Source of the DNA: Corynebacterium amycolatum
GTDB taxonomy: Bacteria; Actinomycetota; Actinomycetes; Mycobacteriales; Mycobacteriaceae
Length of the DNA: 32,000 nt
Direction: 5' to 3' (one strand)
NCBI RefSeq assembly: GCF_049243625.1
Contig: NZ_CP046975.1
The notes under the pieces: model-generated
Seen by the model: only the letters and a program-made list of their open reading frames with translations
Told to the model about the DNA's origin: nothing
Databases searched by the model: none
Translations under genes and position numbers: made by a program
Shown here: positions 2,853 through 32,000 of the stretch, in pieces
How the letters are laid out: the number at the start of each line of letters is the position of its first letter
How positions within the stretch are numbered: the first letter of the stretch is position 1

Positions 2853-2886
2853 CCCCAGGCCGGAAAACTTCCTGGCCTGGGGTTTT
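2853..2886 (+). terminator. Intrinsic terminator-like hairpin (ccccaggcc-N12-ggcctgggg followed by TTTT)
   Basis: A 9-bp GC-rich stem at 2853-2861/2874-2882 is followed by tttt. It lies about 100 bp downstream of the TPM gene stop and directly abuts the 3' end of the convergent tRNA. Confidence 0.55.
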
Positions 2887-2961
2887 GGAGCCGGAAACGG
2901 GACTCGAACCCGTAACCTACTGATTACAAATCAGTTGCGCTACCAATTGCGCCATCCCGGC
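2886..2961 (-). tRNA. tRNA-Thr, anticodon UGU, with encoded CCA
   Basis: The reverse complement folds by hand as GCCGGGA-TG-GCGC-AATTGGTA-GCGC-A-ACTGA-TTTGTAA-TCAGT-AGGTT-ACGGG-TTCGAGT-CCCGT-TTCCGGC-T-CCA (76 nt). The anticodon loop TT-TGT-AA gives UGU. The acceptor stem has one G-U pair. Confidence 0.92.
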
Positions 2962-26797: not shown

Positions 26798-27256
26798 TCA
26801 GTCAGTCTCCATAATCTCCCACTCATACGGAGTCACTTCACCGCGCACCTCGTGGTACGGAGAACTGAAGTACAGGGTGCCATTCTTATTCAGGACCACG
26901 ATCCCGTGGAAGCTGTACTTCTTCCCTTCCTTCAGTCGGAATGGCGGGCGCGAGGCATCCCAATTTCCACCGCTCATTCCGGCTTCCCAACTTCCAGATG
27001 CATCCTCGAGATCAAAGGTGACCAGATTGTGGGCGTTCTTCTTGTTACCCCACTTAGCTGTGGTCTGGCAGCGGAACATGTCCTGATTTACCGACCCACC
27101 ACAGACTACGGTTTCTCCGTCTGTGGAATAGCTGACATAGTCACGGTTGATCTTGGGGTAGTTCGTAGCTGCATCGGCGACGGACGGATTGACAACAGCA
27201 AGCGCAGTGGCGGCAGTGATTGCGGCGGCTACAGCGGAAATCTTCTTGGTGAACAT
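26798..27256 (-). CDS. Small secreted protein (152 aa), family not recognised
   Basis: Clear Sec signal peptide with an AxA site (AVVNPSVADA/ATNY). The roughly 120-aa mature domain has two Cys (VVCGGSVNQDMFRCQ). Confidence 0.7.
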   Translation of the reverse strand: MFTKKISAVAAAITAATALAVVNPSVADAATNYPKINRDYVSYSTDGETVVCGGSVNQDMFRCQTTAKWGNKKNAHNLVTFDLEDASGSWEAGMSGGNWDASRPPFRLKEGKKYSFHGIVVLNKNGTLYFSSPYHEVRGEVTPYEWEIMETD

Positions 27257-27487: not shown

Positions 27488-27682
27488 ATGGCTTTCAAAC
27501 TATTCAGCTTCCGAAAGACCTTCCGCCCCACCCGCAACTCCCGGGTTACGCTATCGCGTTCTGGCCTCGGATATTCCTATCGCATGGGGCCCGTTCGGTG
27601 GACGAAGAATGCCCGTGGCGGCCGAACCACTACTGTGAACACGCCAATTAAAGGATTGACTTATCGCAAGTACCGTCGTTAA
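27488..27682 (+). CDS. DUF4236-like small basic protein (64 aa)
   Basis: MAFKLFSFRKTFRPTRNSRVTLSRSGLGYSYRMGPVRWTKNARGGRTTTVNTPIKGLTYRKYRR has the same pattern as the 20804-20980 ORF. Confidence 0.6.
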   Translation: MAFKLFSFRKTFRPTRNSRVTLSRSGLGYSYRMGPVRWTKNARGGRTTTVNTPIKGLTYRKYRR

Positions 27683-28479
27683 GCGAGCAGTTTCAAGTCG
27701 TCTGCAGTGACCAATCGTGCTTCGATTGCAGCGACAACTACCAGCTGCAGACGGCTCTTTTGATTAACCCGTTGCCGCTCCTTGCTTGAGACCAGCCCCT
27801 TGCTCAAAGCGGATTCAAAAAGTGCGGTGCGGTAATGCTCGACTGCCTTTGCGGTCTTGCCTCCCAGCTTTCGGCCGGCCTCGGCATCGGTGCATGAAAC
27901 CATAATGGTGTCGATTCGGCCGCGCAGATAATCCTCCGCATATGCAGCGATCAGAGCACGCTGGCGCTCCGGCAGCTCCCCAACCGAGATGGTTTCAGTC
28001 CCGTCAGTTGGCAGCACGACCTTCGCATCGGCGTGCTCAATATCCTGTTTAATCTGAATTTCGTACTGGTCATCCTTGACGGAAAAGCGGATGAAATACT
28101 CCGGGTAGCTCAAATCAAAACGCTGTTGCGGAGCCAGCCGGAATGACCGCGACACCTCCGGAATGTGCACCATTGCAGTCACGTGCTCGCAGTTATTGAG
28201 CAGAAACCACATTCCGGATTCCGCATACACATACATTGCTATGCGGTGCATGTAGCGGTTATCTTCGCCCACTTTGAGGTCGGCGTCACGCCCGATGGTC
28301 AATCCCTCACTCGGATTGGCAACAATCGCATCCCCACACAAATTATCAACCACAAGTGTTGGGAGCGATGTCACGTTGACCAGGCCTTTCTCTCGCACCA
28401 CCAGCCACCAACCGCGAATCAGGAACCCTACCCAACGCTCCTGGGGGAATCGCCCAACGACGGCTGAAGTGACTGGCAT
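27679..28479 (-). CDS. FHA-like domain protein with a C-terminal LuxR/sigma-70-region-4-like HTH (putative phospho-dependent regulator)
   Basis: GLTIGRDADLKVGEDNRYMHRIAMYVYAESGMWFLLNNCEHVTAMV resembles an FHA core. The GR and H residues and the NN/N motif are kept, but the pThr-contacting Ser is replaced. The C-terminus LPERQRALIAAY...SCTDAEAGRKLGGKTAKAVEHYRTALFES looks like a LuxR-type HTH. The fold assignment is unverified. Confidence 0.55.
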   Translation of the reverse strand: MPVTSAVVGRFPQERWVGFLIRGWWLVVREKGLVNVTSLPTLVVDNLCGDAIVANPSEGLTIGRDADLKVGEDNRYMHRIAMYVYAESGMWFLLNNCEHVTAMVHIPEVSRSFRLAPQQRFDLSYPEYFIRFSVKDDQYEIQIKQDIEHADAKVVLPTDGTETISVGELPERQRALIAAYAEDYLRGRIDTIMVSCTDAEAGRKLGGKTAKAVEHYRTALFESALSKGLVSSKERQRVNQKSRLQLVVVAAIEARLVTADDLKLLA

Positions 28480-28525
28480 TCATGATAGTTATCCGAAATA
28501 TAACAAATATTCTCGGCGTTATCGC

Positions 28526-30121
28526 TTAATTCGTCGTGGTTTGCATTGCCCACGCCGCCACCGTGTCATAGGCAGCAGGACAAGGATCGCCTTCACTCAA
28601 AACGACAAATACCGGACGAAGCACTTCGGGACTGGATGGCGCAGAACTTTCCGCCGGCTGAACCAAGCAGTAATTAATCGGCCGTGTTGCCTCGGAACCT
28701 TCGCTGTTCACAGCTTGAAATGAGCCTGACGTTTGTAGGACATCCAGCCGGCGACCATCGGGCTCCATTCGCAGTTTCACCACTTCAGAGCCAGCTGGTT
28801 CAGCCACTGACCGGTTCTTGCTCACGGCATCCAGAATTTCACCCCGCCATTTGTCATTTTCAGCCTCTGCAATCGGCTTCTTCTCATCAATACCGTGGCG
28901 AAATGGCAGCAAGAATTCATCTGCCGAAGCAAACTGCGTCGCGTGATATGCAGCACCGTTGAATGTTCCCATCCGCTGAATCCCCTGCCAGCTCTTCTCA
29001 CCGATGGGGACGTCGCTTAACGACGTAAGGGTCCATCGGTCACCCACCGGAATCCGAGGCCCCTTCGCCAAATCGGGAGCGCGAAGTCGCATCGGTTCCG
29101 CAGAACCTCCGATAGCTACTGGCTGTGCCAAGTGCTTGGCACTAAAGAGACCGCCATCTCCAATGCCGCTACGTTCGGCAACAACAATGCCACCACCAAT
29201 AAGGCCTAGACATGCCACTACGGAGAACGCTGCAAGGGCTTTCTTCCGGTTCTTCGGATTGCGAACCTCGACGGCACCACCATTTAGCGCAGCAATGAGA
29301 TCGCTAATAAACGCATTGCAGGATTCGTAGCGTTCATCGGCGTCAACCGCCAACGCCTTGGCGAAGACCGAATCAACTACCGCACCGAGGTTGGTAACCG
29401 GTCGCTTACCGCAGTGCAATTGCCGCGCACTGGCCGCGTCAGTAGCTGGAAATGCCTTATATCCCTGCAACAGCTCGAATATCGTGCACGCAAACGCATA
29501 CTCGTCACTAGCTGCACTAATGCAACCCTTAGTGAAGATCTCTGGCGCCATGTAGGGCAATGAGCCGGCAACACGATTGGTCACGCCAACACTGTCGATT
29601 TCAGTGGCGGTTGATACACCGAAATCCACAAGCGTCGCGCTTAACACAAGCCCCGACGAATCTCGCTCTACGACGATATTTGATGGTTTTACATCACCAT
29701 GAATCACCGCTGGTTCGTGCTTTGCTAGCCGATCTAGCGCGGTAGCAATCTCCACACCAATCGACATGACCTCGCTCTTATCGAAAGTGCGCGGCGGATA
29801 TTCGGCCAGTTCAGCGCCCAACGAATTACCGCTAATAAGAGTCATGGTGAACCAAAGCAGGTTCCCGGCTCGCCCGCCATCGAACACGGTCACAACGTTG
29901 GGAACGTGAACAGTGGCTGCGATAGAAACCTCGTTCTGGAACAGTGCCTCCATTCGCTTAGAAGCACTGGCCTCTTCCGGCAGTGGGACGATTTTCAGTG
30001 CTTCGTTTCGGCCCAGCTTGGGATTTCGTACTCGAAAAACAGTCCCCATATTGCCGGCACCGATGAGAGCTTCAACCTCGTAGCCCTCAAAAATATCGCC
30101 TACCTGGGGAAGATTAGTCAT
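28526..30121 (-). CDS. Transmembrane Hanks-type Ser/Thr protein kinase (non-RD) with an uncharacterised ectodomain
   Basis: GAGNMGTV (G-loop), EALKIV (VAIK Lys), HGDVKPSNIVV (catalytic loop with G in place of R), DFG and YMAPE. TM segment ALAAFSVVACLGLIGGGIVVA. The roughly 215-aa C-terminal region has no PASTA-like repeats that I can see. Confidence 0.88.
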   Translation of the reverse strand: MTNLPQVGDIFEGYEVEALIGAGNMGTVFRVRNPKLGRNEALKIVPLPEEASASKRMEALFQNEVSIAATVHVPNVVTVFDGGRAGNLLWFTMTLISGNSLGAELAEYPPRTFDKSEVMSIGVEIATALDRLAKHEPAVIHGDVKPSNIVVERDSSGLVLSATLVDFGVSTATEIDSVGVTNRVAGSLPYMAPEIFTKGCISAASDEYAFACTIFELLQGYKAFPATDAASARQLHCGKRPVTNLGAVVDSVFAKALAVDADERYESCNAFISDLIAALNGGAVEVRNPKNRKKALAAFSVVACLGLIGGGIVVAERSGIGDGGLFSAKHLAQPVAIGGSAEPMRLRAPDLAKGPRIPVGDRWTLTSLSDVPIGEKSWQGIQRMGTFNGAAYHATQFASADEFLLPFRHGIDEKKPIAEAENDKWRGEILDAVSKNRSVAEPAGSEVVKLRMEPDGRRLDVLQTSGSFQAVNSEGSEATRPINYCLVQPAESSAPSSPEVLRPVFVVLSEGDPCPAAYDTVAAWAMQTTTN

Positions 30122-30711
30122 CGGTTCCGTTGCCCAGACCCATCGAGATTACCCACCATAATCTGAATCCCAGACTCAGAGCGGCAATCATAATTAGGCG
30201 AAACTTCTTGGCATTCCATCGTCAGTGGCTGACCGTCATACTCAATCTCGATTGTCGTCTGCTTTGGCAGTGTTCCTTGCTCTTGCCGCTGTTTACTGAG
30301 CGCCCGCACTACCTCGTAATATGCTTCACAGTCCATATCGGAGCCCTGGTTTGACCAGGCACTCTGCAGCATCGGGCACGTCGGATCAACGGTCGACGCT
30401 AAGACCTCTGGGTCTACGAACCGATCGTCGGCAGGCGGTGCGATTGTAGTCGAGGTTGGTTCCTGATCATCGCCCACATAGTAGGACGGCGAGACTTCCA
30501 CTTCGGTGCTTTCAGTGGTTTCAAACAACCCGTCGGCGTTATCCTGCTGGTTAGAGCGGAAATTTAGGATCCAGACCACCATTGCCAGGATGACGACAAC
30601 CAGAATGGCGAGCACGAACAGCAGAATCTTCCGATTTCGACCATCAGTATCGGAATTTGCACCGCTGTCAATGTCATCGACGCCCGGGATTAGAGTGCGA
30701 TCGTCGGTCAT
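30118..30711 (-). CDS. Single-pass membrane protein with a 4-Cys extracytoplasmic domain, unknown family
   Basis: The start shares one nt with the Hsp70 stop (TGATG), and the stop overlaps the kinase start (ATGA). TM helix ILLFVLAILVVVILAMVVWIL. The ectodomain carries CPML...DCEAYY...MECQ...YDC. Confidence 0.65.
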   Translation of the reverse strand: MTDDRTLIPGVDDIDSGANSDTDGRNRKILLFVLAILVVVILAMVVWILNFRSNQQDNADGLFETTESTEVEVSPSYYVGDDQEPTSTTIAPPADDRFVDPEVLASTVDPTCPMLQSAWSNQGSDMDCEAYYEVVRALSKQRQEQGTLPKQTTIEIEYDGQPLTMECQEVSPNYDCRSESGIQIMVGNLDGSGQRNR

Positions 30712-32000
30712 CAGTTATCTCCTTGGCTGACAGAAACCTTCATCATCGTCGTGCGAGCAGCCGAAATCTCTTCCTCATTCATCACACCAATGCGCACGTG
30801 GGATTCGATTGAGCGACCCGATGGAACGTGAGTGCCTTCCACGGTAATCATGCCGTCTGCTGCTACAAAGAACTTAACCTGAATTGGCTGACCCTTGGGC
30901 AACGGCGGGATACCTGTCAGCATAGATTCCGATCCACTAATGATGTCATTGAGAGCGACATCTTCGGATGGAACGTCACTGGCCTGCTGATACAGCGTCA
31001 AATCTACTTCCTCTTGGCCATCAGCTACGGTCGAATACTCCCGGACCACCGGCTCAGACAGGGGAATCATGTCATTCTGGTTGACCAGATAGTCGATGTA
31101 CGGGTTGTTCAGATGATCGACAACTCGAATGCCAATCGACTTTGGCAATACATTTGCCACCTTCTTCTCCGACAGCGCGGCTAGCTGCCCGGCGTCAATC
31201 CCTGTCTCAGCCGCGATCTGCGCAATTGACTGCTGTTGGACAGCAGGGCTGGACTCAGCATTAACCACTCCCCCGAGCTTGCTGATCATCGCAGCAAGGG
31301 CAGCACCCTTAGCAACGGCTAGATCAGGCTCAACCAACAGTGGCTTCTTACCCGTCAGACGCTCCACCAGTTTGGTTACGGCGGTCATTCGCGAAGATCC
31401 ACCCACCAGGATGACCTCATCAATTGTCAGTCCCGGCTCCTTTTCCTTTGCCGTCTCCAATACACGGGTCAAAGGAATCTCCGTCTGCTCGAGCAATGGC
31501 GCCGTGACACGCTCCAAGTCTTCGCGGGTAACGGCAATCTTGGCGCGGGAACCAGAGTCACTGGCAAGTCGCACAGTGGCGCTTTCCGCATTACTCAGCG
31601 CCTCTTTACAGTTCACCGTCTGCTCATGCAACTTAGCGACGAAGGTCTCATCGTTTTCCGCCTCCTCGTCACCAGTCTGCTCAATGAATTTATCCAGGAT
31701 AAATTCACCAAGCGCCTTATCCCAGTCAGCACCGCCCAGTCGAGCATCACCGTCGGTGGCAATAACCCGGAAGGTGTTGTCAATCCCCTGCACAATCGTG
31801 GCATCGAATGTACCGCCTCCGAGGTCATACACCAGCAAGGTCTTGTCCTTTAGAGGCTGCTTGGAGTCGTAGTAGAGGGCCGCAGCAACCGGTTCTGCTA
31901 CCAGCTCCAACACATTGAAATTAGCAATCTGCCCTGCGTTGCGAGTTGCCTCGCGCTCCTTCGCACCAAAATATGCCGGCACAGTAATAACTGCCGAAAT
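30711..32000 (-). CDS. Hsp70-family ATPase (DnaK/HscC-like paralogue); 5' end outside the window
   Basis: The frame is open to position 32000 (ISAVITVPAYFGAKEREATRNAG), so the track's Met at 31982 is internal. Motifs are DLGGGTFD, RLGGADWD and ILVGGSSRM. There is an SBD-beta-like region (GIPPLPKGQPIQVKFFVAADGMITVEG). The protein ends about 40 aa later, so I see no helical lid. Confidence 0.88.
   Translation of the reverse strand: MSAVITVPAYFGAKEREATRNAGQIANFNVLELVAEPVAAALYYDSKQPLKDKTLLVYDLGGGTFDATIVQGIDNTFRVIATDGDARLGGADWDKALGEFILDKFIEQTGDEEAENDETFVAKLHEQTVNCKEALSNAESATVRLASDSGSRAKIAVTREDLERVTAPLLEQTEIPLTRVLETAKEKEPGLTIDEVILVGGSSRMTAVTKLVERLTGKKPLLVEPDLAVAKGAALAAMISKLGGVVNAESSPAVQQQSIAQIAAETGIDAGQLAALSEKKVANVLPKSIGIRVVDHLNNPYIDYLVNQNDMIPLSEPVVREYSTVADGQEEVDLTLYQQASDVPSEDVALNDIISGSESMLTGIPPLPKGQPIQVKFFVAADGMITVEGTHVPSGRSIESHVRIGVMNEEEISAARTTMMKVSVSQGDN

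Follow-up and report, generated by a model that had tools for sequence, protein, structure and literature searches.

A short Hsp70, a GrpE homologue, a receptor kinase and an FHA-fold regulator in a probable seven-gene operon of Corynebacterium amycolatum

Pairs of Hsp70 and GrpE genes make up the "second theme" of the GAP1-N2 GTPase-centric systems and occur in about 14% of GAP1-N2 neighbourhoods (Kaur, Burroughs, Iyer, Aravind 2020, eLife, PMC7159879). These DO-GTPase systems are predicted to act as conflict systems, and themes that contain kinases exist among them (PMC7159879). The locus considered here lies at one end of a 32,000-nucleotide stretch of Corynebacterium amycolatum DNA from contig NZ_CP046975.1 (the window), and probably belongs to a transcription unit of seven genes, of which the window holds the last four, the 3' half. 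The seven genes encode, in order, two polytopic membrane proteins, a GrpE homologue and a short Hsp70 (together module A), followed by a small transmembrane protein, a receptor Ser/Thr kinase and a regulator with an FHA fold (module B).

The likeness of module A to the GAP1-N2 systems is seen in a short Hsp70 of about 540-555 aa, with a linker insertion of about 30 residues and no lid, in the GrpE homologue encoded immediately upstream, and in a setting that is actinobacterial and membrane-proximal. In S. erythraea (L007) the gene order is GrpE, Hsp70, an FN3 protein of the SaeA type, DO-GTPase2, GAP1 (N2/M/C) and DO-GTPase2, and the same order from Hsp70 onward is found in Actinoplanes (L011), where no gene is recognised as GrpE by Pfam. 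The C. amycolatum locus, in contrast, lacks DO-GTPase, GAP1 and FN3-repeat/J-domain proteins; GrpE is preceded there by two polytopic membrane proteins specific to Corynebacterium, and the kinase and regulator follow. The housekeeping dnaK-grpE-dnaJ-hspR operon likewise places an Hsp70 with intact ATPase and substrate-binding domain beta (SBD-beta) beside a GrpE-family gene. Here, however, the order is reversed, with the grpE-like gene before hsp70, and there is no dnaJ or hspR; the Hsp70 is lidless, its linker is altered and its score is below half of the DnaK cut-off, and the GrpE is too divergent to be recognised by Pfam alone.

Module B has its closest described parallel in the PknH-EmbR pair of Mycobacterium tuberculosis, in which the gene of a receptor Ser/Thr kinase lies beside that of a transcription factor with an FHA domain (PMC8636726, PMC9239209). 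Both pairs are actinobacterial, and in both a receptor Hanks kinase that spans the membrane once and carries an extracellular sensor domain is encoded beside a protein resembling an FHA transcription factor. There is no sequence relationship between the two pairs beyond the domain folds. EmbR has the architecture wHTH(SARP)-BTAD-FHA, with a C-terminal FHA domain and a canonical phosphothreonine pocket. In the window protein, unlike EmbR, the FHA domain is N-terminal with His in place of Ser, and a LuxR-like candidate domain is C-terminal; the kinase is of the non-RD kind.

A third point of comparison is the PFNA cluster of Bifidobacterium, with the composition pkb2-fn3-aaa-atp-duf58-tgm-prpC-hyp-fha (PMC8430577). 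Distant relatives of the regulator lie in MoxR clusters of this sort, and species-specific, fast-evolving kinase sensor domains are common to both settings. The window, by contrast, lacks FN3, MoxR, DUF58 and transglutaminase genes, and the published PFNA gene list has no FHA-helix-turn-helix gene of the regulator's family (PMC8430577). Each building block of the locus thus has a known counterpart, be it the short Hsp70 and GrpE of the GAP1-N2 systems, the receptor kinase with an FHA factor, or the PFNA-like clusters. A preliminary description of the window, made from its letters alone, knew of no characterised system with such a composition; this overlooked the known pairs of GrpE and short Hsp70 (PMC7159879; L007, L011) and the parallel with PknH-EmbR. 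What appears to be undescribed is a GTPase-less, membrane-protein-linked Hsp70/GrpE pair with a conserved DUF4236 neighbour, the family of FHA (His-variant)-helical regulators as such, and the joining of the two modules in a single operon, as seen in the C. amycolatum clade.

The short Hsp70 and its upstream partners

Reading of the open reading frames places four co-directional genes on the minus strand exactly where the preliminary description had them (Table 1), and both of the junctions it reported can be read. The Hsp70 stop and the start of the 197-aa membrane protein gene share one base (aacTGATGacc), and the kinase start is overlapped by the stop of the 197-aa gene in an ATGA (ccgATGActaat). 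Stop and start codons overlap among these three genes, and co-transcription is likely. The contig was extended through the many assemblies that contain exactly this kinase protein, with loci L001-L006 covering 10 kb either side. Beyond the window and upstream of Hsp70, these loci contain three more co-directional, partly overlapping genes for proteins of 252, 433 and 299 aa, and the four-gene unit first proposed becomes one of seven.

The complete Hsp70 gene, recovered in L001, encodes 539 aa and matches Pfam HSP70 (PF00012) with E=1.8e-88 (1.6e-70 for the part in the window). In alignment with DnaK, the nucleotide-binding domain (residues 4-347) pairs with DnaK 3-348 and the SBD-beta (387-522) with DnaK 356-481, while the catalytic motifs GIDLGTSNS, DLGGGTFD and VGGSSR are all intact. 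The protein stops about 17 residues past the SBD-beta alignment and has no alpha-helical lid, as had been noticed in the window before. The canonical hydrophobic VLLLD linker is not present; instead, the interdomain linker reads KKVANVLPK and is lengthened by about 32 inserted residues. The view that this is an Hsp70 paralogue holds, and the protein scores only 302 and 293 bits with the DnaK equivalog models (NCBIfam NF001413 and TIGR02350), against cut-offs of 648 and 822.

After its corynebacterial orthologues, the best matches of the protein are "Hsp70 family proteins" of 540-560 aa from Saccharopolyspora, Lentzea, Amycolatopsis, Gordonia and Actinoplanes, at 40-45% identity. Both the inserted linker residues and the early, lidless end recur in the GAP1-N2-associated Hsp70s (41-45% identity), and on these sequence features the window Hsp70 is assigned to the same subfamily as the GAP1-N2-associated short Hsp70s of actinobacteria. 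The Actinoplanes locus itself has the look of a dense conflict-system island: a 1846-aa TIR-CHAT-STAND-TPR gene has a short Hsp70 gene on either side, the two being paralogues, and the second of them heads the FN3, DO-GTPase2, GAP1 and DO-GTPase2 series.

The gene immediately upstream of Hsp70 encodes the 299-aa protein, which falls below Pfam significance for GrpE when searched alone. Its family is more telling. BLASTP relates it to a 184-aa protein upstream of the L009 Hsp70 (8e-31) and to a GrpE-like protein of Gordonia (1e-4), three of the four family members match Pfam GrpE (PF01025), and a profile of the 299-aa protein and three homologues matches the Geobacillus GrpE structure 4ani_A over its full length with E=1e-7. 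The G-x-x-F-D-x-x-x-H motif of GrpE reads GDAFDSSIHR in the 299-aa protein. By these comparisons the 299-aa protein is classed as a divergent GrpE homologue. The Hsp70 had been called an orphan, but since a divergent GrpE gene stands immediately upstream of it, preceded by two membrane-protein genes, all outside the window, it is not one, and the locus therefore does not merit description as a four-gene system of a categorically new kind.

The two membrane proteins differ in build. The 252-aa protein has about three transmembrane segments, and the 433-aa protein has a cytoplasmic N-terminal domain of about 320 aa followed by three C-terminal transmembrane segments. Homologues of the latter are confined to Corynebacterium; its family has no PDB or Pfam relative, and no HPD/J-domain motif could be made out on reading the alignment. 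Comparison of two C. amycolatum strains (L001 and L013) shows at least 95% identity over residues 1-240 of the 433-aa protein, 85% over 241-280, 55% beyond residue 280, and then 20-45% over the C-terminal linker and transmembrane region. Over the stretch that covers the transmembrane part and the start of the GrpE-like gene the DNA of the two strains is no longer alignable, and the adjacent Hsp70 is 99% identical. The C-terminal segment of the 433-aa protein looks allelic, hypervariable or recombined.

Module A is complete in L001, L009, L010, L016, L017 and L020 and partly visible, at contig ends, in L015 and L021. A convergent DUF4236 gene follows the Hsp70 locus in every locus that extends that far (L009, L010, L015, L016, L017 and L021), and so delimits the Hsp70 locus on its 3' side in these Corynebacterium-type loci. 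In the window this mini-gene overlaps the 3' end of the regulator gene by 4 bp, and the DUF4236 proteins of L001 and L009 are 75% identical. Possibly the mini-protein is a part of the Hsp70 module that has gone unrecognised. A second DUF4236 gene sits after clpC, and a 339-aa DUF4236 protein and CD225 proteins are found near a GrpE-Hsp70 locus of Gordonia.

The pair of GrpE and short Hsp70, which was known only from predicted GTPase conflict systems, thus also occurs with membrane proteins and without GTPases. C. amycolatum is skin-associated and opportunistic, and the function of a lidless Hsp70 that comes with a GrpE of its own could be studied there in simpler surroundings.

The membrane protein, the receptor kinase and the FHA-fold regulator

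The first gene of module B encodes the 197-aa protein, which has one transmembrane segment (residues 24-42) and four Cys residues, in keeping with the membrane-anchored, four-Cys ectodomain protein described before. It belongs to no Pfam, NCBIfam or PADLOC family, and its orthologues are found solely in the closest lineages, at 57% identity in L015, where the four Cys are kept, and in L020 at 39% over the last 114 aa. A different transmembrane protein precedes the kinase of L009, and BLASTP finds it unrelated to the 197-aa protein; a common motif, C-x(n)-[YW]DCR, that had seemed to join the two was dropped on this ground.

The kinase agrees in all respects with the earlier account of an intact catalytic core, HGD for HRD, one membrane span and a large ectodomain. 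It matches Pkinase (PF00069) with E=1.5e-31 and displays the motifs IGAGNMGTVF, ALKIV, HGDVKPSN, DFG and PYMAPE; a transmembrane segment at about 294-312 is followed by an ectodomain of 215 aa. The non-RD form, HGD, is found in the kinases of the window, L015, L009 and L010b, and HRD in L010a. Beyond Pfam, NCBIfam and PADLOC yielded generic kinase matches only. The best PADLOC model, PD-T4-6 (E=1e-52), covers the catalytic domain alone, MAD6, MkoA and PglW models match as well, and PADLOC gave no match for the other three window proteins.

The outward-facing parts of both membrane-bound proteins change faster than the cytoplasmic parts. Between C. amycolatum and L015 the kinase ectodomain is 53% identical, as against 72% for the catalytic domain, and ectodomain and four-Cys protein together fall at 53-57%, as against 72-80% for the cytoplasmic parts. 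Divergence of this pattern fits surface-exposed sensing, as judged from the sequences. The ectodomain of the window kinase is unrelated to that of the L009 kinase.

The last gene of the operon was first read from an ATG at 28479, leaving a gap of 46 bp behind the kinase gene, and this start is probably wrong. All homologues of the regulator begin about 35 codons after that ATG; a Shine-Dalgarno-like GAAAGG precedes a GTG at 28374; the stretch upstream of this GTG aligns poorly, with indels, to L015, an 80%-related lineage in which the gene caller chose the short form (235 aa); and the predicted local distance difference test score (pLDDT) is below 50 for residues 1-37 of the 266-aa model. For these reasons the gene probably starts at GTG 28374, encodes a cytoplasmic protein of 231 aa and is separated from the kinase gene by a spacer of 151 bp. 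One database cluster, P0121 (290 aa), has a different and even longer N-terminal extension, and gene callers disagree at this start.

Because a word-based search for homologues of the regulator returned only four clusters, an exhaustive profile search was needed, and this found 364 cluster representatives, mostly of 225-255 aa and essentially without Pfam annotation. An initial AlphaFold2 model, made from a four-sequence alignment, had a pLDDT of 46 and gave no significant Foldseek matches; it was superseded by a model from 91 sequences with a pLDDT of 84.8, rising above 90 over residues 40-145, in which residues 42-145 form a beta-sandwich. The top PDB match of this model in Foldseek is FHA-1 of Rv1747 (E=2.2e-5, TM-score 0.76), 49 of the 50 Foldseek matches listed are FHA or SMAD-MH2 folds, and the family profile, too, matches Rv1747 FHA-1, with the motifs in register (E=0.018). 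The variant motif GR...HR...NxG runs through the family, with G63-R64 and N95 invariant or nearly so. At the sequence level, Pfam FHA (PF00498) has no match to the window protein at E<=1 and matches only 2 of 91 family members at E<0.01. Structure prediction for the 266-aa protein, for which the lack of an FHA or helix-turn-helix fold had been named beforehand as grounds to give up the proposal, thus found the FHA fold, and the model confirms the N-terminal domain as such.

The model closes with six C-terminal helices (residues 171-264), probably a LuxR/GerE-like helix-turn-helix. Alignment by hhalign with the C-terminal domains of NarL, GerE and FixJ is in register but weak and gives P of about 0.005, compared with 0.04-0.37 for controls. 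Pfam domains of the SARP-type wHTH or BTAD kind have no match in the regulator. By analogy with EmbR, we regard the protein as a putative phospho-dependent transcription factor and partner of the kinase.

Kinase and regulator genes are adjacent in 7/7 Corynebacterium-type instances. Profile scans with the regulator alignment yielded two loci in genome contigs and four in metagenome contigs. Distant relatives of the regulator were sampled in two contexts, in one of which the kinase directly precedes the regulator (L022-24: PP2C, FHA, kinase, FHA regulator, FN3, bpMoxR, DUF58). In the other (L014: MoxR, DUF58, TgpA, PP2C, FHA, FHA regulator), no kinase is in view. The clusters of L022 and L014, from metagenomic actinobacteria, are PFNA-like and include a giant FN3/cadherin protein. 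The regulator defines a family missed by domain libraries, with about 364 representative clusters of FHA-plus-helical proteins of about 240 aa, and the members examined lie beside actinobacterial Ser/Thr kinases or in PP2C/FHA clusters, including the PFNA-like MoxR clusters. To our knowledge, dedicated transcription-factor outputs of Hanks kinases are rarely known, and the members of this family are good candidates for that role.

Gene order and competing explanations

The fused order, from the 252-aa and 433-aa membrane proteins through GrpE-like, Hsp70, small transmembrane protein and kinase to the FHA regulator and the convergent DUF4236 gene, recurs in L015, L020 and L021, with identities that range over 62-80% for Hsp70, 41-62% for the kinase and 50-78% for the regulator. 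L015 has an Hsp70 80% identical to that of the window, and the two metagenomic loci, L020 and L021, have Hsp70 at 62%, kinase at 41% over the full length and regulator at 50-54%, with genes that overlap or are at most 45 bp apart; in L021 the small transmembrane gene is not recognisable. Elsewhere in Corynebacterium the arrangement is looser. L009 has a paralogous kinase/regulator pair (type B) on the divergent strand; in L010 an AMP-ligase gene precedes the orthologous pair, which lies 3 kb downstream, and a further pair is found at a distance of 7 kb; the kinase gene of L016, about 9 kb downstream of the Hsp70 core, runs off the end of the locus; and L017 shows the Hsp70 core and DUF4236 before its contig ends. 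The preliminary description had counted it as a refutation if the genes were never found together in other genomes; this is not the outcome, since the association recurs in three further lineages at 62-80% Hsp70 and about 41% kinase identity. Outside the sub-clade it is not conserved. From these gene orders there are two separable modules, and their fusion is specific to a Corynebacterium sub-clade comprising C. amycolatum and three lineages. Functional coupling of modules A and B is plausible.

The explanation towards which we lean, with limited assurance, is a seven-gene operon of two separable modules, A with GrpE, short Hsp70 and membrane proteins, and B with transmembrane protein, kinase and FHA regulator, the latter proposed to work in the manner of PknH-EmbR. 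Module A would be a corynebacterial GrpE/short-Hsp70 paralogue pair tied to membrane proteins instead of GTPases, most likely not a general folding chaperone but a clamp, cycled by ATP and GrpE, for a dedicated client at the membrane, and its cycle may act on, or be recruited by, the two membrane proteins. In module B the ectodomain, possibly together with the four-Cys transmembrane protein, would sense an envelope or extracellular cue; the kinase would autophosphorylate on Thr; the variant FHA domain would dock on the phospho-kinase, or itself be phosphorylated; and DNA binding by the C-terminal helix-turn-helix-like domain would change as a result. Since module B follows immediately on module A and stop and start codons overlap, the kinase would be co-expressed with the Hsp70 machine, while the regulator gene appears to retain an upstream region of its own, the 151-bp spacer.

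Several results weigh against this explanation. None of the seven products has a Pfam DnaJ match that would supply a J-domain. In the regulator, the position of the Ser that contacts phosphothreonine in FHA domains is taken by a nearly invariant His78, followed by Arg79, and because the canonical Ser is replaced, phosphopeptide binding is not assured. Among 91 members of the family, two match GerE (PF00196) and seven others match assorted helix-turn-helix models (HTH_36 and others), and the hhalign probability for a helix-turn-helix is about 7%, below 10%; of the earlier claims for this protein, the FHA-like core lacking the phosphothreonine-binding Ser was right, and the LuxR-like domain is weakly supported. 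Promoter and terminator scans gave results at or below the expectation from shuffled sequence and are uninformative. Only about ten loci were sampled, and in L009, L010 and L016 the modules are apart, on opposite strands or separated by 3-9 kb, so their linkage may be merely syntenic. The separate placing of Hsp70 core and kinase pair in these three loci likewise counts against the earlier picture of the four window genes as a conserved functional unit.

The same separation is a difficulty for a closer union, in which a single, chaperone-coupled signalling machine would integrate the kinase/FHA regulator with the Hsp70/GrpE membrane complex. The Hsp70 might, for example, hold back the kinase or regulator for as long as no signal is present; alternatively, the Hsp70 module might be phosphorylated by the kinase and the mark read by the FHA regulator. 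Translationally coupled junctions do join Hsp70, the 197-aa gene and the kinase, the seven-gene order is kept down to 62% (Hsp70) and 41% (kinase) identity, and even in the separated loci L009 and L010 the Hsp70 core has a kinase/FHA pair no more than 10 kb away; in L016 the partner of the distant kinase is out of sight. Yet the pair nearest Hsp70 in L009 is a paralogue and not the orthologue, and outside Corynebacterium each side keeps other company: the Hsp70 is found beside DO-GTPase/GAP1 genes, the FHA regulator in PFNA-like MoxR clusters. Synteny is high among corynebacterial genomes, and proximity alone is for this reason weak evidence for an integrated system. We consider such a machine unlikely.

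Less likely again is an anti-phage or conflict system derived from the GAP1-N2 systems by loss of the GTPases, in which Hsp70/GrpE and the kinase would serve as post-infection sensor and effector. The closest non-corynebacterial Hsp70s do sit in DO-GTPase2/GAP1 clusters (L007, L011), to which Actinoplanes adds its TIR-CHAT-STAND gene, and these clusters are the predicted conflict systems, some with kinases, introduced above (PMC7159879). Two dynamin-like genes (LeoA/LeoBC-like) lie upstream in one corynebacterial locus (L016), sequence divergence is fast, even from strain to strain, in the extracytoplasmic parts and in the membrane-spanning part of the 433-aa protein, and the G+C content is slightly lower than that of the surroundings. 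Against these points, no DO-GTPase, GAP1, FN3 or effector/toxin domain was recognised within 10 kb either side in L001; the PADLOC matches answer to a generic kinase domain, PD-T4-6, MAD6 and PglW all matching; and the locus holds a stable, vertically inherited position beside clpC rather than a place in a mobile island, with no integrase or transposase seen. A bolder variant, to which we attach equally little weight, would make the operon a self-contained membrane-embedded Hsp70 machine, descended from a GAP1-N2 system without its GTPases, in which the kinase and the His-variant FHA factor sense envelope attack by phage or antimicrobials and gate, or are gated by, a GrpE/Hsp70 clamp on the hypervariable 433-aa protein. 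If true, the operon would encode an as yet uncharacterised type of immune or stress sensor, one built on a chaperone.

That unrelated modules came to lie side by side through chance rearrangement and now merely share a transcript in this clade, with no functional relationship, is improbable: each module is found independently elsewhere, and module positions vary among species within kept flanks (AMP-binding ligase, 152/169-aa secreted protein, DUF4236, ClpC), as local rearrangements would have it, but stop/start overlaps and a fused order retained at 40-60% protein identity suggest selection for co-expression.

Coordinates, composition and surroundings

The features of the window and of the loci compared with it are collected in Table 1. 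The G+C content of the four-gene locus is 0.525-0.55, as against about 0.57-0.62 across most of the window, a modest difference that bears out the lower value remarked on in the preliminary description.

Table 1. Positions of the features discussed, numbered within the window or within the locus named
Feature	Source	Position	Strand	Remarks
Hsp70 gene (C-terminal 429/539 codons)	window	30711..32000+	minus	first 110 codons beyond window end
Single-pass membrane protein, 197 aa, extracytoplasmic 4-Cys domain	window	30118..30711	minus	open reading frame
Hanks-type receptor Ser/Thr kinase, 531 aa	window	28526..30121	minus	open reading frame and Pkinase
Probable non-coding spacer between kinase and FHA-regulator genes, 151 bp	window	28375..28525	minus	longest open reading frame would read as coding
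AT-rich stretch	window	28486-28525	minus	right after kinase stop
FHA-fold regulator, 231 aa (probable start)	window	27679..28374	minus	longest open reading frame 27679-28479 = 266 aa
DUF4236 mini-gene, 64 aa	window	27488..27682	plus	Pfam DUF4236 E=1.1e-12; convergent
Secreted protein, 152 aa	window	26798-27256	minus	
tRNA-Thr	window	2886-2961		
Complete Hsp70 gene, 539 aa	L001	7792-9411		
433-aa transmembrane part and GrpE-like gene start	L001	6395-6738		not alignable with L013
DUF4236 gene	L001	19142-19318		62-65 aa in Corynebacterium-type loci
DUF4236 gene	L009	9675-9863		
DUF4236 gene	L010	10564-10752		
DUF4236 gene	L016	10456-10647		
DUF4236 gene	L017	11661-11858		
DUF4236 gene	L008	11107-12126		
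Two short Hsp70 genes flanking TIR-CHAT-STAND-TPR gene	L011	677-18488		
Two dynamin-like GTPase genes and 318-aa gene	L016	1327-4601		co-directional
PFNA-like cluster	L022	1216-14701		metagenomic
PFNA-like cluster	L014	1269-8741		metagenomic

No promoter, terminator or operator motif was detected in the 151-bp spacer, no palindrome lies upstream of the regulator gene, and the three intergenic regions of the operon have no common k-mer of 8 or more. The AT-rich stretch within the spacer contains repeated GATAAC / GTTATA elements (CGATAACGCCGAGAATATTTGTTATATTTCGGATAACTATC) that are not kept in L015. The sole find of Rfam and tRNA scans is an unrelated tRNA-Thr.

The locus had been thought to lie next to other accessory genes, which is not confirmed. 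Its neighbours include genes for ClpC (by Pfam) and for proteins with HhH-GPD, AAA_25/DnaB_C/ChlI and Pro_CA domains, and the surroundings are a syntenic chromosomal region. The 152-aa secreted protein, which has a signal peptide, two Cys residues and no family, travels with this neighbourhood, and a 169-aa homologue of 40% identity is encoded beside the kinase module in L010. In L016, two dynamin-like GTPase genes and a 318-aa gene lie just upstream of the Hsp70 core; the GTPases match Pfam Dynamin_N weakly and the PADLOC LeoBC/LeoA models with E values of 8e-12 and 7e-9.

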